Source: an uncultured euryarchaeote (GTDB lineage Archaea > Thermoplasmatota > Poseidoniia > Poseidoniales > Poseidoniaceae). From it: a stretch of DNA of 48,696 nt. Shown here piece after piece: positions 1-30,123 of this stretch (position 1 is its first letter; each line of letters begins with the position of its first letter). The position numbers and the translations under genes are program-made. The notes beneath the pieces were generated by a model. The model worked only from the letters and a program-made list of their open reading frames with translations, searched no databases and was not told the DNA's origin. Where the stretch lies: contig CALDPP010000197.1 in NCBI GenBank assembly GCA_937911345.1, forward strand, positions 1 through 48,696. Reading direction: 5' to 3'.

Positions 1-1089
1 GCCAGGAGGACCGCCTCGTGATGGTCCTCTAGGAGGGCCGCCTCGTGATGGTCCTCTAGGAGGGCTTCTTGACGGTAATTGAGGTTCCTCGTCATCTTCA
101 TCTTCGAAAATGGCTCCACAATGTGGACACTCATTATCACTTTCTTTGACTAATCCATCACATATTTCACAAGCAAACATTTCTTCATCATCTTGTTCTT
201 CCTCTGATAGATTCTCTATTTCACCATCTTTTGAACGGTAGAGGTTGATTTCTGCTACAAAATCAAAGCCTTTGAGGGCAATCTCCGTTTGCACCGCATG
301 CTCAAATGCCTGCGTTAGTTCTTCTGGAGTGTCAAGCACCCGGCCATCATCAATGTAAGTGATATTTACTGTTAAAATTCCATCATCTAGTTTAGCTTGT
401 GGAGTTTCAACAGCGACTCCTCTTTTTCTTGCAACTCTTCTGACCGCAACCTCGCACATTCTTCTTAGAAAAGCATCGTTAGGTGCATCTTTTTGACCAC
501 CTAAGGCACCAGATAGGATTTCTTGTGCAGCATTAGTTTCATTTCTCAGGTGACCAGGTAGGTCTGCTCCAAGATTTGAAAGCACATTCGATGCAGAAGC
601 CTGATTCATGTTGAGCCATTGGTTACGCCTTTCACTTTTCATGGCTTTTTCAGCTTCTGCAAGTCGGTTTACCATTTCATCTGTTGGGGATGTAGATGGA
701 TTCATTGGAGTAACATTTTGAACATTTGAAGGAGGTATATTTTGCAGATTATTCATTGGCATTTGTTGATTCAACTGGTTTTGGTATCCTTGCGGAGGAA
801 AGTTTCCAACTGGAGGTATGTTTTGCTGATTTTGCATACTTTGAGCAATTTGTCTCATCAACTCGGGTGAAACTGCGTTTGGATCGGTGACAGACATCTC
901 TCTCTGATGTCTTATTGCTTCACCAGACACAACGCCGAAACTTCTGCCACCCGTTACTTCTTGACCGGAAAGACCCACTGCATTTGGGGCGGTGAAGCCT
1001 CCTGCTCTGGACAAGTCTTGACGAGCACCACATTCTGGACAAAATATACTGTCTGCTGGTATCTCTTCACCGCAAGAGCCGCACTGCAT
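1..1089 (-). CDS. Double zinc-ribbon protein with a Q/N/P/M-rich region and Arg-Gly-Pro repeats (3' end runs off the window)
   Basis: Not in the ORF track. Manual translation from ATG 1089 (GAGGGG upstream) is open to base 1: MQCGSCGEEIPADSIFCPECGARQ...FACEICDGLVKESDNECPHCGAIFEDEDDEE...PPRGPSRGGPPRGPSRGGPPG. Confidence 0.85.
   Translation of the reverse strand, partial: MQCGSCGEEIPADSIFCPECGARQDLSRAGGFTAPNAVGLSGQEVTGGRSFGVVSGEAIRHQREMSVTDPNAVSPELMRQIAQSMQNQQNIPPVGNFPPQGYQNQLNQQMPMNNLQNIPPSNVQNVTPMNPSTSPTDEMVNRLAEAEKAMKSERRNQWLNMNQASASNVLSNLGADLPGHLRNETNAAQEILSGALGGQKDAPNDAFLRRMCEVAVRRVARKRGVAVETPQAKLDDGILTVNITYIDDGRVLDTPEELTQAFEHAVQTEIALKGFDFVAEINLYRSKDGEIENLSEEEQDDEEMFACEICDGLVKESDNECPHCGAIFEDEDDEEPQLPSRSPPRGPSRGGPPRGPSRGGPPG
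4..65. repeat. 27-bp tandem repeat (about 2.3 copies visible) encoding RGPSRGGPP
   Basis: aggaggaccgcctcgtgatggtcctct (4-30), aggagggccgcctcgtgatggtcctct (31-57), aggagggc (58-65). Confidence 0.9.
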
Positions 1090-16979: not shown

Positions 16980-17735
16980 ATGAGTTTAATGATTGAGTGG
17001 CGGAATGGTCATGAAAATCTATTGGGTGGGAAAATTTGTTTGTTTTCGTTGCCTGGTGTCGGTAACATCGGCAAAGCAGCGATAGACGCTCTAAATTCGA
17101 CCAATGATGCCACTGAAATTGCTAGATTGCATCACACAGCATTGCCACCTCTAGCAACTTTGGATGAGGATGGTTTGTTATCTCCACCACACCTTTCTAT
17201 TCGAGCAATACCAATTAGCGAAGGTGAGTATTTACTTACATTATCAGGAAACTCTCAACCGCTGGAACCAAATAATCAAGGTGTATTGGCAAGGGAAATT
17301 CTTGAACTAATGCAGGAATACCAAGTCTCTGAATTGATTGTATTGGCAGGAATGGTTGATGACGCTGCTAGAAAAGAAATCTTCATTGTCCCAAGCAGTA
17401 GTTCTTACAGAGTAGATTTAGAATCCCGAGGAGCAAATGTTAGGAGAGATGAACCAAGTTCAGGTGCAATTGGACTTGCTGCATTATTGTCTTCATTGGG
17501 CCCAGTATATGGTATCGATTCCGCCTGTGCAATTGCCACCACAGTTGGCGCTAGTGGAGACATAATTGCATCCCAGAACTTATTGCGGTCAATAGATGAA
17601 TGGTTTGGGCTAAATCTCGTAATACCCAAAGATGCAAATGAAAAACTCTTTGAAAAGCTAAAACAGATATCTCCACAAAGACAGGATGACTTGGTTTCTG
17701 AATTGACACAATCCCATGATGCATTCTACATGTAG
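16980..17735 (+). CDS. Proteasome assembly chaperone PAC2 family protein
   Basis: LPGVGNIGK, GNSQP, GAIGLAALL; conserved position after nop10. Start uncertain (16962-16989). Confidence 0.8.
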   Translation: MSLMIEWRNGHENLLGGKICLFSLPGVGNIGKAAIDALNSTNDATEIARLHHTALPPLATLDEDGLLSPPHLSIRAIPISEGEYLLTLSGNSQPLEPNNQGVLAREILELMQEYQVSELIVLAGMVDDAARKEIFIVPSSSSYRVDLESRGANVRRDEPSSGAIGLAALLSSLGPVYGIDSACAIATTVGASGDIIASQNLLRSIDEWFGLNLVIPKDANEKLFEKLKQISPQRQDDLVSELTQSHDAFYM

Positions 17736-17736
17736 G

Positions 17737-17818
17737 CGCCGAGAGAGGGATTTGAACCCCCGTGTCTGACGACAGTGGATTTCGAATCCACCGCAATACC
17801 GGGCTATGCGATCTCGGC
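17737..17818 (-). tRNA. tRNA-Ser (anticodon CGA)
   Basis: Acceptor stem GCCGAGA/TCTCGGC, anticodon arm GTGGA-TTCGAAA-TCCAC, long variable arm, T-loop TTCAAAT, discriminator G followed by CCT. Confidence 0.95.
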
Positions 17819-17870
17819 CTATTCCCGCCTTAAGCGCCATAGTCATAAGCATGATGCTATACGCATAATC

Positions 17871-18071
17871 ATGCAGATTAGGTTCTACGGTCGAGATTAT
17901 GATACGACGTTGAATTTTGAAAATGAAATCAAATTGAGGGATGCTTTGGTTGAAAGTAAAATTTTACCATCTACTGTTGTAGTTAGTTTCGAAGAACAGA
18001 TTTTGCCTCTTTCAACGATAATCAAAAATGATATTGAGTTATTAGTTACAACAGTTTCTTCTGGTGGCTAA
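17871..18071 (+). CDS. Ubiquitin-like ThiS/MoaD-family small archaeal modifier protein (SAMP-like)
   Basis: 66 aa from ATG 17871 ending VSSGG, beta-grasp pattern. The longer ORF-track start overlaps the tRNA. Confidence 0.8.
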   Translation: MQIRFYGRDYDTTLNFENEIKLRDALVESKILPSTVVVSFEEQILPLSTIIKNDIELLVTTVSSGG

Positions 18072-19945
18072 CTAGATACTACATCAAGTCGAGAATTTCT
18101 ACCAATTTGGCCGCGTAATTGGTCTGCCCAAGCATCAAGTTCTATGTTTGATAATAGTACATAGTCGCCTTCATTTGCCATATCGTACTGGTGACCCCAA
18201 TCGTTTGACCAACCTGAAACCTTGATAGATTGCTTGCTATCGAAAATTACGAGGCCTTTACGGTGCCATTCTCGACCATTTTTGCCTATTCCTGAACGTT
18301 GGAATTTATACGCTAATTTACCAACAATATCCCATCTTGCTCTAAAATTGAGCAAATTATCAGAATAATCGATATCACCAGCAACATTAGTTAATTTACC
18401 AAGAGGATCTAACTTTACCGTTAATTCACCTCTATAATTTGAGGTAATTATTACATTTTCAAGATATATCAGATCATTTTTCTTTAATCCGTTAGGATAA
18501 TTCTGCTCCCCGTCTTGATTCATTGTAACTCTAAAATCTACTGTTGCGCGATTACCATCTTGAATTATTTTAATTTCTGGAGAGTCATTTTCTCGATAAT
18601 TTATCGAATCAATATTGGCACTAAGATTGAACCTTACAGTAAGTTGGTCAAATGGCACGGTATTGGTCTCTGTTGTTTTACCAGGAAGTTGGTAAAAGCC
18701 ATTAGGTTCTACATATTCAAGACCTTGACCTCCGGAACAAAATGAATTCCAATCACATCTGTCACACCTTTTTTCCTCTTTTGGCGACGCAGTTGGCACC
18801 CCACCTTCACTAAAACCCCTAACCGGCGAGGGATTAGCAGGATGCTTTTCTATAGACGTTTTTTGACCTTTTAATCGATGCCATAATTGCTCTAATTCGG
18901 CTTCCATGTTAGCCATCTCAATCTCCGTTGGATTCTTCACTGATTTTATGACGCCTGCACCGAGGTACCAAATTTCTAAGTCGGAAACCGTTTCTTTTTT
19001 GCCATGAGTTATCCACCAAAGCATAGCGTACATTCGAAGTTGTTCAACATAATCTCCGGATCTATCTCCAATTCCCTTACTTGCTTTGATGTCAACAATT
19101 TTAATCGAACCGTCCCATCGGTAAACCAAGTCATACTCGCCCTGAAACCAATAATTTGGATGTATTGCGTTCATACTAAATTGTCCTGATTCCGGTTCTA
19201 CAAACCAAGGCCTCGCAATCTCCCAAGCCTCAAGAATTGAAATTTTACCTTCTTTTGCTAACGGATGCTTGCTATTAATGGTAAATCCAAAACCATCAGG
19301 TGCCGGCCAATGTTCACGATGACCCGCACGCCATTTGGATAATACGGATTCATCAATACTCAAAAAGCACCTATTTACCTCATCTAAATGATATTTCAAA
19401 GCATTAAAACACATCTCAAGACAGTAATCAAACTTAACATCTGACCAATCACCAAATTTTCTCTCCTGCCTCTCCCAATCCTTCTGTGCAGCTAAAAGCG
19501 CAGATTTGAGATGCAATTTCATTCTTTCTTTTGCCCATATCTCAATTTCTTCCAATGTCCCTGGAATCTGATTTTCAGGTAATGGAATAATTCGATTTGC
19601 TGGCCAAGTTAGGTTCAATTCTCTAGAGGGTTTTCCATCCATGCCAATGGGGATTTTTGACAGCGTGTCTTGTGATGCATTTGACAGCAATAGAGATGGT
19701 GATTCCTTGAATGTTCGGCATATCGCTTCCTCTACTGCCCTGCCAACATATAGCACTGGAATTTGTTTAATTTTTAATTTCAAAACCTTCTCATAAAACC
19801 ACATTCTATTGCACGAATTATATGTGTTTACTTGACTCGCTGATAATCGATTGTAAGGACCAACCCCGTCAAGTTCAGAATTGATTTCAGACACCGGCAT
19901 AGGGATATGTTGATGCCTAACCCATTTCAATTCTACCTTAGTCAA
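18068..19945 (-). CDS. PD-(D/E)XK RecB/Cas4-like nuclease (putative 4Fe-4S) fused to C-terminal OB folds, paralog B
   Basis: LSASQVNTYNSC, GEYDLV...IVDIKAS, QLRMYA, CDRCDWNSFC; OB-like C-terminus LVIFDSKQSIKVSGW...GDYVLLSN. Confidence 0.82.
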   Translation of the reverse strand: MTKVELKWVRHQHIPMPVSEINSELDGVGPYNRLSASQVNTYNSCNRMWFYEKVLKLKIKQIPVLYVGRAVEEAICRTFKESPSLLLSNASQDTLSKIPIGMDGKPSRELNLTWPANRIIPLPENQIPGTLEEIEIWAKERMKLHLKSALLAAQKDWERQERKFGDWSDVKFDYCLEMCFNALKYHLDEVNRCFLSIDESVLSKWRAGHREHWPAPDGFGFTINSKHPLAKEGKISILEAWEIARPWFVEPESGQFSMNAIHPNYWFQGEYDLVYRWDGSIKIVDIKASKGIGDRSGDYVEQLRMYAMLWWITHGKKETVSDLEIWYLGAGVIKSVKNPTEIEMANMEAELEQLWHRLKGQKTSIEKHPANPSPVRGFSEGGVPTASPKEEKRCDRCDWNSFCSGGQGLEYVEPNGFYQLPGKTTETNTVPFDQLTVRFNLSANIDSINYRENDSPEIKIIQDGNRATVDFRVTMNQDGEQNYPNGLKKNDLIYLENVIITSNYRGELTVKLDPLGKLTNVAGDIDYSDNLLNFRARWDIVGKLAYKFQRSGIGKNGREWHRKGLVIFDSKQSIKVSGWSNDWGHQYDMANEGDYVLLSNIELDAWADQLRGQIGRNSRLDVVSS

Positions 19946-21662
19946 TGAGTGTGACTCTTGTTGAACGTTGGTCTATTCTCAATTGTGGCAAACCTGAACG
20001 CCAACCCAATTCTGCGGAGACTATCTTCAATTTATTTCCCGGCCTAATAGTAAGCATTTGACTAGTTATGCTGGAACCAAAGGCGACGACCTCTGCTACA
20101 TGTTCTCCATCCCAGATGTGTAAATTTAGCATCGACCATGGTTTTTCATCAAGCCTTACACCCTCTCGAAGCCCTATAGAAAGGACTACTCCTTCCACAT
20201 TTGCCCTAGTCCTCATCAGACCGATTCTAGTAATTTGATATTTGTCTGATTGATCATTATCGCTTGATTTTATTGAAATAATTTTACTCTTATTGTCCAA
20301 ATATAATCTGGGATTACCTCGCCAGACTCCTGGAAGAGCATCAATAATCATTACTTCACCATCTGAATAATCATGCAGTGAAGGATAAGCATTTGGCTCG
20401 CTCTCTTCGATTGTTATCTGCGTGCCTGAAACGCTGACCATTGCACCTAGGACAGGTTCTGAGTAATGATTTGGTAAAGGTCCCCATTGACCTGTAAATT
20501 TACCTTTAACATTGACTCGTGACTGAATCTCACCGATTTTTTGGCTTGGTGGAGAAAGGTTAACAGTAACTTCTTCCAAACTATTCAGAAATTCTATTCC
20601 AGAGTCCTCATCTCCAAATTTACACCAAAAACAGCCAGCTGAATCATTGCATGGTTCGGGATATTCATCTGGAAGTTTGGCTGGACCTTCACCTAAATCG
20701 AGCATTAACCTGTGTGTCTGTAAATACATATCTCCAAGTTTATCCATCTCCTTTTCAGTCGGAACCTCATATTGTATTCGAGAAGAATTATCTAGGTACC
20801 ATCCCTCTATACAATCAACCATTTCCTTTTGATGGGTTTCACGCCACAACCAAGCGTAGAAGTTTAACTGATGCTTTAGAGATTCAGCAAATTTTGAGCT
20901 TGGATTACCCGATTTGATATCAACTATTCTCGTTTTACCATCCCATCTTAGAACTAAGTCTAGTTCTCCTGCAGCCCAACCATCTGGATGAAACAATCTC
21001 TGTGGTTGATGTACTCGTGGATCCTTTACCCAAGGTCTAGCAATCTCCCATGATTCTATCCAATCTACTTCACTACCAGCTTCCTGCCATTGCATTGGTT
21101 CATCTTTTGACCAATTCCTCATTCCGAAATTCCTTACTTTGTCTGGAATAGGAAACAGGGGTTCTTCCCCCCATGCCGGACTAGGGACTGAGAATGGTGG
21201 TTTTCCAGATCTAAATTGTTCTAGGTACGGACCTCCGCCGGATTCATGACAACTTTCAACCTCTTCCAAAAACATATCAAGTCCATTTTTTATTTTCCTT
21301 GATAGTTCGGCGACATCCACATCATCCCAATTTTGTCCATCTTGTTTCCACAAGGTATTGTCCCAGTCATCTTTTCCATTATGATAACATTGTTCTGCTT
21401 CATGCTCAGCCAAACTGTAGCACCAATCTCTTAACTCTTCAAGTGAGCAAATACTTACAGGCCTCCTCATTAAGATTGAGCACAGTGAATCTTCAATTAC
21501 GATACCTAAAACTTGGGAGATAGACCTTGGTGAAGATAATCCTAACTTGTTGGATAGGAAAAATTGCCGTTTACAACGTAAGAACTTAGTCAGCGAAGAT
21601 GCAGAAATCCTTGTCCTTGTTCTGCTAAGTGGACCTCCAGAAGGCGGTGTTCCCATTGGCAT
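19938..21662 (-). CDS. PD-(D/E)XK RecB/Cas4-like nuclease fused to C-terminal OB folds, paralog A
   Basis: ISASSLTKFLRC, GELDLV...IVDIKSG, QLNFYA, CNDSAGCFWC; OB-like LHIWDGEHVAEVVAFG...PGNKLKI. Confidence 0.82.
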   Translation of the reverse strand: MPMGTPPSGGPLSRTRTRISASSLTKFLRCKRQFFLSNKLGLSSPRSISQVLGIVIEDSLCSILMRRPVSICSLEELRDWCYSLAEHEAEQCYHNGKDDWDNTLWKQDGQNWDDVDVAELSRKIKNGLDMFLEEVESCHESGGGPYLEQFRSGKPPFSVPSPAWGEEPLFPIPDKVRNFGMRNWSKDEPMQWQEAGSEVDWIESWEIARPWVKDPRVHQPQRLFHPDGWAAGELDLVLRWDGKTRIVDIKSGNPSSKFAESLKHQLNFYAWLWRETHQKEMVDCIEGWYLDNSSRIQYEVPTEKEMDKLGDMYLQTHRLMLDLGEGPAKLPDEYPEPCNDSAGCFWCKFGDEDSGIEFLNSLEEVTVNLSPPSQKIGEIQSRVNVKGKFTGQWGPLPNHYSEPVLGAMVSVSGTQITIEESEPNAYPSLHDYSDGEVMIIDALPGVWRGNPRLYLDNKSKIISIKSSDNDQSDKYQITRIGLMRTRANVEGVVLSIGLREGVRLDEKPWSMLNLHIWDGEHVAEVVAFGSSITSQMLTIRPGNKLKIVSAELGWRSGLPQLRIDQRSTRVTLID

Positions 21663-21670
21663 GCTATCAC

Positions 21671-25493: not shown

Positions 25494-28148
25494 GTGGTGA
25501 CTCAATTGTCGAAGAGAACTATGATGGATCAATTCATGGAAATTAAGCATGAAAATCCGGGTACAATTCTTTTCTTTCGCATGGGAGATTTTTATGAATT
25601 ATTTCATGAAGATGCAGAAATCGCAGCCCCCGTACTAGGTCTTGCCCTCACCTCTCGCGATAAAAACGCAGAAAATCCTATCCCAATGGCTGGTTTTCCA
25701 TGGCATGCTTTAGAAGATAATCTTAGAATTATGCTAAAGTCAGGATTTAAGGTAACCGTTGCAGAACAAGAACAAGAGTTGAGGGAAGGTGCAAAATTAC
25801 TAGAGAGAGTTGTCACTAGAATTTATACCCCTGGTAGTTTGTATGAGGAATCCTTACTTTCTACAAATGACCGTTCCGTTCTTTGCTCAATAGTATTAGC
25901 TAAATCGTCTCTAGGCATGGCTATTATAGACTCATCAACTGGTGAGTCATGGGCCTCTACTTGGAATGATGATACACGATTCAGCAGCTTAGAAGATGAA
26001 TTGTTGCGATGGAATCCCGCAGAAATAATCATTTCACCAAAAGACTCAGAAAATGATAACTTATGTGCAATTTTCGCTAATCTAACTAATTGTGTTATCT
26101 CTCAACATAACGTAAACAAAAAGCGCAGAATAGAAAGATTAGAAACTATGCTCGAAGTTTCTGATCTGGGACACCTTGATCTAGACAGTTCACCACTGTC
26201 AATTGACGCTGCAGGGTTTGCTGCTGATTATCTTGCTCAAGTCCATTTCAAGGAAGACATACCAATCAGAGATTTACAGATTGTTGAAGATACTGGGCAC
26301 CTTGTAGTCGACCAAACAACACTTAGAAATCTTGAGATTACCAGCACGCTTTCGGGTGAATACGAAGGCAGCCTAATATCCAGCATGAATTATTGCCGAA
26401 CTGCTATGGGTAGAAGACAACTGAAAACTTGGTTACTTAGACCATTATATCAAAAAGAAGCAATAGAATTACGTCATAATGCCGTAAAAATACTGAAATC
26501 ATCATCAAAGAGATTAGATATGCTCCGTCAAAATTTAACTGGTTTAAGGGATTTAGAAAGACTAGCGACACAACTAGCATACAACAGAAGTAATGCAAGA
26601 GATTTATTGGCAACTGCACTTGCTCTAGAAAGAATGCCTGCAATTATGCAAATCTGCTCAGAGACTAATGATGTACTCCTTTCACATTTGAGCGATGAAC
26701 TTAGTTGTTTATCAGATATGGCTGAAGATATATTTAGAACATTAAATGATGAATTACCACTAAGTCTGAGAGATGGTGGTCTGATTAGGAATGGAGTGAA
26801 TTCAGAACTTGACGAGTTGAGAGTTGTTTCTTCTGGTGGCTATGAATGGTTCAAAGAACTTGAGAATAAACTTCGCAATGAATTAGAAATACCATCTCTA
26901 AAAGTTAAGTCTAACCGTCAAATTGGTTGGTTTATTGAAGTGACTAATTCTCATCTTGAGAAAGTACCAAAAGAGTGGATAAGAAAGCAACAGATGACTA
27001 ATGGGTCAAGATATACCACCGAAGAAATTGTTGAAAGAGATGATCTTTTGATGACGGCTGATTCAAAAATAAAGCAGATAGAATATACCTTGTTCCAAAA
27101 TTTAAGGGATTCATGCAGAAAAAACTCTGCAACCCTAGCAACTATTGCTGGAAAGGTTGCTGGAATCGACGTTCTGCAGTGCTTTGCAACAGTAGCAAGA
27201 AAAAGAAACTGGAGTAAACCGAAAATAGTAACAGAATCTATAATTCAAATAAAACAATCAAGACACCCTGTTCTAGAGCAGGTTCATGGTTTTGTTGCTA
27301 ATGATATCAACATGGACAAGAAGAATAGGTTTTTGTTAATCACTGGCCCCAATATGGGTGGTAAATCGACCTACCTAAGAACTGCTGCACTAATTTCAAT
27401 ACTGGCACAATCTGGAAGTTATGTTCCAGCTGAGAGTGCTAAACTAGGCCTAGTTGACCGAATTTTCACAAGAGTAGGGGCAAGTGACGACCTAAAGAGG
27501 GGGCGTTCTACTTTCATGATGGAAATGATTGAGGTTGCTCATATCTTAAAGAAAGCAACAAATAACTCCCTTGTTTTACTAGATGAGATAGGTAGAGGAA
27601 CCTCAACTTTTGATGGATTATCAATCGCATGGTCAGTAACAGAGGACATATCCAAGAGAATTAACTCGAGAACTCTATTTGCTACACACTATCATCAACT
27701 TGTTGGGTTAGAAGACGATATTGAAACACTAAAGAATGTTCATGTTCAAGTCTCTCAGGTAGATGGAAAATTGAAATTCCTACACACCATTGCTGATGGT
27801 CCATGTGACGATTCTTACGGAATTCAAGTTGCCGCTTTAGCCGGCCTTCCAAGAAGTGTAGTTGAAAGGGCTACTGACCTTTTGCAGTTTCTAGAAAAGC
27901 AGGCTAATGGTGCAAAAGCAGGAGAATCTGGTTCTCCAACTGCTAGAGATATTGGACAAACTAGTTTGATGAGTTATTTTGCTGCAGCATCATTAGCAAA
28001 CAATCAAAGTAAGGAAACACCTACATCGCTAGAAGATACGGAATTATTTAGTTACATAAAAACATTGAATTTGGACGAAATGTCACCGAAGCAGGCAATT
28101 GATGCTCTTTATGAAGCAAAATCTTTGTTGGAGGATTCTTATGATTAA
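25494..28148 (+). CDS. mutS: DNA mismatch repair protein MutS (MutS1)
   Basis: FFRMGDFYELF mismatch-binding motif, TGPNMGGKST, STFMMEM, LDEIGRGTS, ATHYH, SYGIQVA. Confidence 0.97.
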   Translation: MVTQLSKRTMMDQFMEIKHENPGTILFFRMGDFYELFHEDAEIAAPVLGLALTSRDKNAENPIPMAGFPWHALEDNLRIMLKSGFKVTVAEQEQELREGAKLLERVVTRIYTPGSLYEESLLSTNDRSVLCSIVLAKSSLGMAIIDSSTGESWASTWNDDTRFSSLEDELLRWNPAEIIISPKDSENDNLCAIFANLTNCVISQHNVNKKRRIERLETMLEVSDLGHLDLDSSPLSIDAAGFAADYLAQVHFKEDIPIRDLQIVEDTGHLVVDQTTLRNLEITSTLSGEYEGSLISSMNYCRTAMGRRQLKTWLLRPLYQKEAIELRHNAVKILKSSSKRLDMLRQNLTGLRDLERLATQLAYNRSNARDLLATALALERMPAIMQICSETNDVLLSHLSDELSCLSDMAEDIFRTLNDELPLSLRDGGLIRNGVNSELDELRVVSSGGYEWFKELENKLRNELEIPSLKVKSNRQIGWFIEVTNSHLEKVPKEWIRKQQMTNGSRYTTEEIVERDDLLMTADSKIKQIEYTLFQNLRDSCRKNSATLATIAGKVAGIDVLQCFATVARKRNWSKPKIVTESIIQIKQSRHPVLEQVHGFVANDINMDKKNRFLLITGPNMGGKSTYLRTAALISILAQSGSYVPAESAKLGLVDRIFTRVGASDDLKRGRSTFMMEMIEVAHILKKATNNSLVLLDEIGRGTSTFDGLSIAWSVTEDISKRINSRTLFATHYHQLVGLEDDIETLKNVHVQVSQVDGKLKFLHTIADGPCDDSYGIQVAALAGLPRSVVERATDLLQFLEKQANGAKAGESGSPTARDIGQTSLMSYFAAASLANNQSKETPTSLEDTELFSYIKTLNLDEMSPKQAIDALYEAKSLLEDSYD

Positions 28149-30123
28149 AGTTAACAGAATACAACAACTTGATGATGAAACAATCGGCCATATTGCTGCG
28201 GGAGAGGTCGTCGAGAGGCCGGCTCAAGTCGTAAAAGAGTTGTTAGAGAATAGTCTAGATGCTGATTCTACACATGTGGAAGTTATAATCGAAAGAGGGG
28301 GTTTTGATTCAATTCTTATTATCGACAATGGATCAGGTATAAGCAGCGATGATATTCAACTATCAGTGGATAGACATGCAACCTCGAAATTATCTAATTT
28401 TAATGACCTTAATGAAATATACACTATGGGTTTTCGCGGCGAAGCATTAGCAAGTATTGGTATGGTTTCAGAGTTAACCGTCGCCAGTAAAACACGTGAT
28501 GGTGACGGTAATAGTATAACGGTAAACTTTGGGAAAAAGGGAGATGTCACATCTCATGGCATGTCATATGGCACCACGGTATCTGTTAGAGATATCTTCA
28601 AGAATACTCCAGCGAGATTATCTTTCCAAAGAAGGCCTGCCACTGAGAGCGCAAAAATTGTTGATGTTATGATATCCCACGCAATCTCAAATAACAAGGT
28701 TGGATTTAAACTGGTTTCAGATGGAAAAACCATTCTGAACATTCCTGTATCAAATTCAACATCAGACAGATTGTATGACATTCTAGGAGGACAAGCATCA
28801 CAACTAATTGAATTAAATTCTCCAAGCCAAGATTTAGATGTACCAGGTGGAGAAAGTTGGACTGGTTGGATTAGTACTCCCGACATCACCAGAGGTAAAG
28901 GAGATGAAGTATACATCTTGATCAATGATAGACCCGTTGCATCCGGACCTTTTCATCAAGCAATCAGAAGAGGCTACAAGACGAGACTAATGCAAGGCAG
29001 ACACCCTGTTGCGGTTCTCTCCCTCAAGATACCTGCTTCTGAAGTCGATGTAAATGTGCATCCAACAAAAAGAGAAGTTCGGTTAAAACATTCATGGAGA
29101 GTTTTGGAAAGGCTTGAAAGATCAATAGCATACACATTGGAAAATGTTGCTACGGAACCAGAAACAGATGGCAGTATTATTGGATTATCATCGCTTAATC
29201 CAAATGTCAAGCCAATTCAAGATTCGCTATTTGTGAATGAAAAAGAGAAAGAAAACGAAGCAGGAGATAATATTGCAAATCCCCCTCAATCATCAGTTCC
29301 TGCATGGGCTTTAGCCGCAGGAACACAATTGAACTTGACTGGAATCAAAGCTAAAGAAGCGAAGCCATTAGCAAAACTACGCCCGATTTCACGCTCTGAG
29401 ACGCCACAAGAGACCCTGCCAGGTTTACCAGAAAAACCGATTTCAGCAGCCCTTTCTAGCGCTGAAAGGGATTTACACAGGCATTCACACAATGGAATAT
29501 CTACATCACCTTTGGAAGAAGAGAAATTACGCGGAGAGGAGAATTCTCTTGGCATCATGGAACCATTAGCCCAATTCGCTGATTCTTACATTATTGTTCA
29601 ATCTAGTGAGGAATTGTTACTGATTGACCAGCATGCCCTGCATGAAAGGGTTAGATATGAAAGACTCAAACAATCAAAAAAGGAATGGGTTGCTCAAAAT
29701 TTAATCTCACCAATCGAACTAATTCTAAATCCAGTTCAAAAACAGATTGTAATTGGGTCTATAGAACAATTATCTGAGATGGGTTTCACAATATCAATAA
29801 ACGATTCATCAATTACCCTATTATCTCATCCATTATTTATCAGTGGACAAGACATTGAGAAGGTTTTCAAAGATTTATTACAAGATTTGTCTGAAGACGG
29901 AGCACCTCTCGAAACTATTGAGAAACTAATGGATCATATGGCTTTCATGAATGCATGCCGTGGTGCGGTAAAAGCAAATCAAAGATTATCAATTTCTGAA
30001 ATGCGTAGACTAATTGAAGATATGAGAAAAATACCCAACCCATGGGCTTGTGTTCATGGCAGACCTACTGCATTGAGAATAGACATAGACTCGCTTGACC
30101 ATCATTTCGGTCGTCATGGATGA
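28141..30123 (+). CDS. mutL: DNA mismatch repair endonuclease MutL
   Basis: IAAGEVVERP, KELLENSLDA, GFRGEALAS, DVNVHPTK, DQHALHERVRYE, ACR, CVHGRP. ATG 28141 overlaps the mutS stop. Confidence 0.97.
   Translation: MIKVNRIQQLDDETIGHIAAGEVVERPAQVVKELLENSLDADSTHVEVIIERGGFDSILIIDNGSGISSDDIQLSVDRHATSKLSNFNDLNEIYTMGFRGEALASIGMVSELTVASKTRDGDGNSITVNFGKKGDVTSHGMSYGTTVSVRDIFKNTPARLSFQRRPATESAKIVDVMISHAISNNKVGFKLVSDGKTILNIPVSNSTSDRLYDILGGQASQLIELNSPSQDLDVPGGESWTGWISTPDITRGKGDEVYILINDRPVASGPFHQAIRRGYKTRLMQGRHPVAVLSLKIPASEVDVNVHPTKREVRLKHSWRVLERLERSIAYTLENVATEPETDGSIIGLSSLNPNVKPIQDSLFVNEKEKENEAGDNIANPPQSSVPAWALAAGTQLNLTGIKAKEAKPLAKLRPISRSETPQETLPGLPEKPISAALSSAERDLHRHSHNGISTSPLEEEKLRGEENSLGIMEPLAQFADSYIIVQSSEELLLIDQHALHERVRYERLKQSKKEWVAQNLISPIELILNPVQKQIVIGSIEQLSEMGFTISINDSSITLLSHPLFISGQDIEKVFKDLLQDLSEDGAPLETIEKLMDHMAFMNACRGAVKANQRLSISEMRRLIEDMRKIPNPWACVHGRPTALRIDIDSLDHHFGRHG

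Follow-up and report, generated by a model that had tools for sequence, protein, structure and literature searches.

The stretch of DNA considered here (hereafter, the window) is the whole of the 48,696-nucleotide (nt) contig CALDPP010000197.1 of GenBank assembly GCA_937911345.1, which derives from an uncultured euryarchaeote of the family Poseidoniaceae, order Poseidoniales. Members of this order (Marine Group II) rank with the most abundant surface-ocean archaea, are uncultured, and have a DNA metabolism that is known from sequence alone. On its minus strand, the window carries two co-oriented open reading frames (ORFs) in head-to-tail arrangement, referred to as gene A and gene B. Gene A occupies positions 19938..21662 (stop codon at 19938-19940) and encodes 574 amino acids (aa). 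Gene B occupies 18068..19900 and encodes 610 aa when read from an ATG at 19900; its longest frame, from 18068 to 19945, comprises 625 aa and begins with TTG. Residues of B are numbered from the ATG, and all coordinates of domains and spacers given below refer to the minus strand. Each product combines a RecB-family nuclease, with a putative iron-sulfur (Fe-S) cluster, and two predicted OB folds at the C-terminus.

A and B are paralogs along their whole length, with 22% identity (130/599) at an E-value of 1e-25 in BLASTP. Shared motifs include SAS..C, WEIARPW, HP..W..GE.DLV.RWDG...IVDIK, and QL..YA. The nuclease domains span about residues 16-365 of A (20568..21617) and about residues 9-393 of B (18722..19876). 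Both domains match the Pfam family PDDEXK_1 (PF12705), A with 50.8 bits and B with 53.9 bits against a cut-off of 22. The catalytic set of A consists of E57, E233, D235, D248, and K250 together with Q265 and Y269, and is invariant among 22 A-type sequences. The equivalent set of B (E57, E255, D257, D270, and K272, with Q287 and Y291) is invariant among 27 B-type sequences. The signature of the RecB family, an aspartate followed by (D/E)xK and QxxxY, is found as D235, D248-I-K250, and Q265xxxY269 in A and as D257, D270-I-K272, and Q287xxxY291 in B, and it also occurs in the proteins of genomes that carry a single copy.

At the sequence level, both proteins have the split pattern of four cysteines, one N-terminal and three C-terminal. 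In B, C30 is present in at least 90% of sequences and C379-x2-C382-x5-C388 is invariant, which is the canonical Cas4/AddB pattern. For A, C30, C344, and C347 are present in at least 90% of sequences, and the fourth cysteine is C338 in the Poseidoniaceae clade. The position of this fourth residue (within residues 338-353) shifts across the family, lying upstream of the CxxC in Poseidoniaceae (C338-x5-C344-x2-C347) and downstream of it (CxxCx5C) in deeper branches. All four cysteines are missing from one A representative, P0128, and this joint loss fits cysteines that act as one unit. In both A and B, the four residues would hold an Fe-S cluster.

Cut-offs of the Cas4 profiles were not reached by either protein (25.7 and 22.7 bits against 65 for TIGR00372; 14.2 and 13.6 bits against 22.7 for PF01930), and PADLOC and PHROGs scans yielded only weak matches to the nuclease core. 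No helicase family was detected in A or B with Pfam, and the structural models contain only the nuclease and the two OB folds.

These models were built by AlphaFold2 with a 49-sequence alignment and scored well for A (predicted local distance difference test, pLDDT, 88.0; predicted template modelling score, pTM, 0.88) and for B (pLDDT 92.2, pTM 0.87), which suggests that the domains pack in a fixed arrangement. The nuclease domain of A most closely resembles AdnA in VIA-align comparisons (9np6_A; Z 14.5, 223 residues aligned, root-mean-square deviation (rmsd) 3.4), followed by Dna2 (5ean_A, Z 13.7), ACE1 (9iab_B, 13.4), AddB (3u44_B, 11.6), and a type I-C Cas4 (8d3l_I, 11.1). The best match of the B domain is ACE1 (9iab_B; Z 15.7, 238 of 266 residues, rmsd 3.3), followed by AdnA (Z 14.1), AddB (12.2), Dna2 (10.8), Cas4 (10.7), and Exo5 (9.1).

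The last ~200 residues of each model form two beta-barrels in which DSSP assigns the order b1-b2-b3-helix-b4-b5. In A, the first barrel covers about residues 370-478 (20229..20555), with the ordered elements at 383-463, and the second covers about residues 479-574 (19941..20228), where VIA-align matches restricted to 478-574 include, for example, single-stranded DNA (ssDNA)-binding proteins (SSBs) at Z 9.6-10. In B, the first barrel spans about residues 406-512 (18365..18685), with strands at 423-505, and the second about residues 514-610 (18071..18361). VIA-align matches to OB folds cover residues 405-610 of B, and some are restricted to 514-609. All top Foldseek matches of the A C-terminus are tandem-OB proteins, with 200-300 aligned columns and E-values of 4e-8 to 1e-5. 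They include the RPA70 DBD-A/B module (4gop_C, 3.9e-8; 1jmc, 4.4e-7), HIN-200, Teb1 AB, POT1, and Pyrococcus abyssi RPA. Individual OB folds of A and B match known ones at Z 9-13, and A aligns with P. abyssi Rpa1 at Z 12.2 with 28% identity across 100 residues. Profile comparisons point the same way. For instance, the last OB fold of the B family matches P. abyssi RPA (8aa9, E 6e-7), 2k50 (4.4e-5), and the Sulfolobus SSB (1o7i, 3.5e-4), and the A family gives a weak match to RPA (E 0.015), with a weak P. abyssi RPA match at residues 484-567. As modelled, the C-terminus of each protein is a pair of RPA-type OB folds. The first-pass annotation of the window, made from its letters, had described A and B as paralogs with the motifs named above, with intact PD-(D/E)XK residues, with the QxxxY and split cysteine features of certain RecB-family nucleases, and with what look like two RPA/SSB-type OB folds at each C-terminus. 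Every motif was recovered, and each part of this description agrees with the conservation, profile, and structural evidence.

The same annotation had also proposed that A and B overlap by 8 nt and are translationally coupled. The letters in question, TTGACTAA, are indeed present, and they amount to an 8-nt overlap if B starts at the TTG (19945). Homologs do not use that codon. Among 15 representatives of B-type clusters, 11 begin at the residue equivalent to M16 of the 625-aa ORF; the nearest homolog of B, 96% identical, is 610 rather than 625 aa long; and seven of ten related loci have no in-frame start codon upstream of the conserved ATG (MPV...). For these reasons, B probably begins at 19900, 37 nt past the stop of A, so that the TTG-initiated ORF is probably too long and the overlap an artefact of ORF calling. 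The 37-nt spacer (19901..19937) itself contains a TATA-like element, TTGAAAT, at 19924-19930. Across ten Poseidoniaceae loci, this element (TTGAAAT, TTTGAATA, or TTTAAGAA) is conserved at about -30 to -24 from the B ATG, and no Shine-Dalgarno-like motif was found in the spacer ahead of that ATG. Gene A starts differently, 8 nt past the stop of ABCE1 (spacer 21663..21670), with a Shine-Dalgarno-like motif of the GGTGA type ahead of it in relatives. Given that B has a start codon of its own 37 nt downstream of A and a conserved promoter-like element, the proposed translational coupling to A is not supported.

Four metatranscriptome runs yielded short contigs, 90-100% alike, that map to both genes. 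One of them stops at 19904, 4 nt from the B ATG, and positions 19905-19934 are covered by none. Such contigs reveal neither starts, strand, nor level, and RNA libraries can contain DNA, so no transcription units are concluded from them.

Full-length relatives of A and B appear to be restricted to a single order. When 1.84 billion cluster representatives were searched exhaustively, 150 matches were obtained at E <= 0.001, of which 30 had at least 500 residues. Among 301 sampled Thermoplasmatota genomes, full-length relatives occurred only in Poseidoniales; a sister family of the same class (f4) had none (0/8), and outside the order no genome bettered a score of 5e-14. Look-alikes in the ESM Atlas were confined to Thermoplasmatota PDDEXK_1 clusters of about 611-614 aa, with none from other phyla.

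Counts within the order are based on 151 Poseidoniales genomes that are at least 85% complete. B is present in 147 of these, and in all 64 of the high-quality ones. There were 109 matches to the A profile; nine of these (1e-81 to 1e-86) fall on B ORFs, leaving 100 true A genes. Both genes occur in 99 genomes, B only in 48, A only in one (G396), and neither in three. Seven Thalassarchaeaceae genera (g5, g6, g7, g8, g10, g142, and g143) are represented by 48 genomes, in none of which A was found, and full searches of five of these genomes recovered a single family member in each. The reverse situation is also known. In G396, the 3.4 kb that follow A contain no B, and in three Poseidoniaceae genomes outside the sample (G023, G006, and G008) the order at the site is ABCE1, A, a small ORF, and PAC2, with B missing there and not found elsewhere. 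Proteins that survive as single copies retain all 11 residues checked.

A and B separate with support of 100/100 in a maximum-likelihood tree of 42 proteins, and within each clade Poseidoniaceae (f1) stand apart from families f2 and f3. The B-only proteins form a clade (100/99) inside B that is sister (98/96) to the B proteins of the paired genera g9 and g141, and the A-only proteins fall in three separate places in the f1 part of the A clade. These positions indicate that the missing paralogs are secondary losses. The root was assumed to lie between A and B (midpoint), as the nuclease domain of an AddB-like protein was judged too distant to serve as an outgroup. If this root is correct, the duplication would be older than the radiation of the order, and at least one loss of A and at least three losses of B would have followed, making the losses both secondary and repeated.

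Fused forms of the two genes were sought as well. An apparent 1187-aa A-B fusion in G377 was rejected as an artefact, in which a scaffold gap of 100 N (L029 3414-3513, contig C13) joins the genes; a gene caller would report the resulting A-N-B open frame as a fusion. No fused relatives of A of 1006-2870 aa were found at E <= 1e-5, which is weak evidence, and none was longer than 1005 aa. The exhaustive search of representatives gave one long, weak match (P0272, 967 aa, E 6.9e-4), presumably an AddB-like protein.

Several characterized systems share parts of this architecture. Mouse Dna2 (PDB 5EAN; PMC4716839) resembles A and B in having a RecB-family nuclease with a four-cysteine iron-sulfur "staple" and OB or beta-barrel modules in one chain, and acts on ssDNA ends with RPA. 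It threads ssDNA through an Fe-S-stapled tunnel (PMC4716839). The likeness in fold, at Z 13.7 (A) and 10.8 (B) across 240-245 aligned residues, is accompanied by clear differences. Dna2 has a C-terminal superfamily 1 (SF1; SF1B) helicase in its chain, which A and B lack, and there is no detectable sequence-level membership of A or B in its family. In addition, Dna2 has one OB fold before the nuclease and a beta-barrel after it, whereas both RPA-type OB folds of A and B follow the nuclease.

AddB, AdnA, and AdnB (PDB 3U44, 6PPU, and 9NP6) share with A and B the nuclease fold class, the cysteine pattern (Z 11.6-14.5), and a tandem arrangement of related nuclease genes. In contrast, the nucleases of AddAB and AdnAB are attached to a UvrD-like (SF1) helicase or a helicase-like domain, which A and B lack, and A and B are separable in evolution. 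Cas4 and ACE1 (PDB 4IC1, 8D3L, and 9IAB; PMC5704561 and PMC12094033) are small, stand-alone, RecB-like Fe-S nucleases with the same C...CxxCx5C and QxxxY features, and ACE1 is an ssDNA endonuclease (PMC12094033). Relative to these, A and B have ~200 extra C-terminal residues (the two OB folds) and ~100 extra loop and helix residues inside the nuclease domain, fall under the Cas4 cut-offs, and are without cas or Argonaute neighbours.

The tandem OB module itself is familiar from RPA70 DBD-A/B and archaeal RPA/SSB (PDB 1JMC, 4GOP, 8AA9, 2K50, and 1O7I). In A and B, however, the pair is fused to a nuclease, with no zinc-finger OB or trimerisation helix seen, and the two OB folds of A are oriented differently from solved tandems (rmsd 13-20 Å across the pair). 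Finally, the UvrD-Cas4-like and pfam12705 fusions of Hudaiberdiev et al. (2017; PMC5704561) also combine a Cas4-like nuclease with a DNA-handling module outside CRISPR loci. Their partners are SF1 or SF2 helicases, and the consulted portion of that paper does not mention an OB-fold fusion. A literature search, which reached few subscription journals and excluded supplements, found no paper on a nuclease with tandem OB folds and no characterized member of the family. One paper on a Poseidoniales nuclease was found, and it concerns an ExoIII-type AP endonuclease (bioRxiv 10.64898/2026.10.16.759439). The suggestion of the first-pass annotation that this is an undescribed family is in keeping with that search: the architecture is uncharacterized and confined to Poseidoniales.

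What might such proteins do? The reading favoured here, with a little better than even confidence, is that A and B are two self-sufficient, motor-less ssDNA nucleases that are independent and partly redundant, and not an obligatory heterodimer. In both Dna2 and AddB, the Fe-S cluster staples together the two ends of the nuclease domain and encloses the active site in a tunnel through which a DNA end must pass. By analogy, the one N-terminal and three C-terminal cysteines of A and B would hold a cluster of the same kind, and a DNA end would thread through a tunnel-like active site. The tandem OB pair, similar to RPA70 DBD-A/B, would grip about 8-10 nt of ssDNA and deliver the end of a free tail, a flap, or a gap to the nuclease. 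Each gene would encode a complete motor-less nuclease acting on ssDNA, and the enzymes would probably trim ssDNA in replication or repair as core housekeeping genes of Poseidoniales. A would be expressed behind ABCE1 and B from its own promoter-like element, and the two perhaps differ in polarity or substrate.

The domain composition, the ssDNA-acting nature of the closest folds, and the fixed housekeeping locus all point to a motor-less ssDNA nuclease. That locus is stable, with L10e, ABCE1, tRNA-Ser, and PAC2 as neighbours and no defence genes among them. The reciprocal losses, the intact survivors, and the separate start signals favour independent enzymes over an obligatory heterodimer.

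Several points weigh against this reading. The promoter of B, together with a near-leaderless mRNA, is read from a sequence motif alone. There are four A-only assemblies, three of them only 69-85% complete, and B could lie elsewhere in these three genomes even though it is gone from its usual site. OB folds also bind RNA and proteins. A also lies upstream of B, adjacent and on the same strand, in all 39 genomes compared by eye, with a spacer of 35-140 nt. This order has persisted since before the split of Marine Groups IIa and IIb (MGIIa/MGIIb), as interacting subunits would also show. Such strict adjacency, wherever both genes occur, leaves room for a facultative complex.

The first-pass annotation had gone further, picturing A and B as a candidate heterodimer of two nucleases, comparable to AddAB or AdnAB, in which OB folds take the place of the helicase. 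Such a complex would process both strands, or both polarities, of a DNA end. The strict gene order and short spacer fit this picture, as do the retention of both paralogs since before the order radiated, the preservation of both active sites (as in AdnA and AdnB), and the resemblance of the A nuclease to AdnA. This picture is nevertheless rather unlikely. The expected co-conservation holds for adjacency but not for joint occurrence, since B stands alone in 48 of 151 genomes and A in one, three more lack B at the syntenic site, and the remaining copies keep their active sites intact. Losses were secondary and occurred repeatedly, the genes do not overlap from start to stop, B has a promoter-like element, and the only apparent natural fusion is a scaffold gap. 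A complex prediction with A 1-478 and B 1-512 (the last OB fold of each omitted) returned scores of 0.00 and 0.00; it gave no answer and is evidence neither way. Neither protein has a helicase domain. The related idea that OB folds replace the helicase of an AddAB-like resection machine is weakened by the presence of a separate AddAB-like operon in the same genome. This operon lies on another contig (L030, contig C12, 1213-8921, minus strand). Its AddB-like partner is a 957-aa ORF (open frame of 1241 aa) with a C-terminal PDDEXK_1 domain, and it overlaps the helicase ORF by 4 nt. The AddA-like partner is a UvrD-type helicase of 1612 aa that matches addA models at 3.5e-60 (below the cut-off) and Bacillus subtilis AddA (3u44_A) at 6e-23. 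An AddB-like protein occurs in 147 of the 151 genomes, and with such an operon across the order a motor-driven resection enzyme is already present and the role of end resection is not vacant.

The same operon bears on a second proposal, in which the pair works with a separate helicase and stands in for archaeal NurA in resecting double-strand breaks. HerA-NurA is the usual resection system of archaea. NurA (PF09376) was not detected in any of 71 Poseidoniales genomes, compared with 77 of 230 other genomes of the phylum, and control genomes were positive. The Rad50 zinc hook was likewise not found in the five genomes searched, so that the HerA-NurA/Mre11-Rad50 set may be missing from Poseidoniales. 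Replacement by A and B is improbable all the same, given the AddAB-like operon and the existence of many other Thermoplasmatota families without NurA and without the A/B family (e.g., f15, 0/38; f18, 0/15). A DUF87 domain (a HerA/FtsK-like ATPase) was noted in an ORF of about 824-837 aa in Poseidoniaceae, in the genome of the window (C198:4714-5055) and in G072 and G016, and NurA was not found there.

A role in antiviral or anti-plasmid defence, or in processing guides or spacers in the manner of Cas4 or the Argonaute-associated ACE1, is brought to mind by the ACE1-like fold of B, by the sub-threshold Cas4 profile matches, and by one source that names relatives "Cas4". It is most improbable for a gene that is near-universal, single-copy, and fixed at one housekeeping locus without defence neighbours, and whose product misses the TIGR00372 cut-off. 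Moreover, cas1 (PF01867) was found in none of five genomes (that of the window and four relatives) in which positive controls were detected, and Tandem Repeats Finder identified no CRISPR-like array in the window, in agreement with the initial report that neither is present there. Equally hard to credit is an activity on RNA, in ribosome recycling or mRNA surveillance, suggested by the conserved link of A to ABCE1. The ABCE1 gene lies directly upstream of A in 14/14 Poseidoniaceae loci that include the flank and in 6/6 genomes of f2 and f3, at a distance of 8 to about 20 nt, and OB folds can bind RNA. Against this, the close structural relatives of both domains all act on DNA, and B, the more widespread paralog, is not beside ABCE1 in B-only genomes (0/2, within 2.6 kb). 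Conserved order of unrelated housekeeping genes is also common in archaea.

In a bolder version of the favoured reading, each protein would amount to a Dna2 nuclease and RPA joined in a single chain, and the family would be a new class of ssDNA nuclease, motor-less and end-threading, that arose in Marine Group II archaea and has its polarity set by the OB module. A and B would then cut opposite polarities (5′ and 3′ tails) and cooperate transiently at the same ends, downstream of the AddAB machine. This proposal is speculative and, on present evidence, doubtful. Whichever reading applies, the family is near-universal in its lineage and restricted to it, and it joins an Fe-S RecB-type nuclease to an RPA-like tandem OB, both of them well-understood modules. 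It offers a natural test of how ssDNA binding might substitute for a motor in delivering DNA to a threading nuclease. The family also forms part of an unusual archaeal repair set, with a bacterial-type AddAB-like operon, MutS/MutL, and no NurA found, and since A and B are small, soluble-looking, and confidently modelled, they are testable in vitro.

Other features of the window include the MutS and MutL genes just mentioned, which lie at 25494-30123, ~4 kb from the pair, and represent bacterial-type mismatch repair. MutS is 884 aa long with all five MutS domains, MutL is 674 aa long, and the two ORFs partly overlap as called. On the other side, a tRNA-Ser(CGA) gene (17735-17818, minus strand) overlaps the 5′ part of a 98-aa ORF (17775-18071, plus strand). 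The real small ORF is probably 17871-18071, which encodes 66 aa ending in Gly-Gly, converges on B, and is conserved beside B and PAC2 across the order. It has no Pfam match and might encode a small ubiquitin-like modifier. At the very start of the window (4-65), there is a tandem repeat with a 27-nt unit, present in 2.3 copies that match at 97%.

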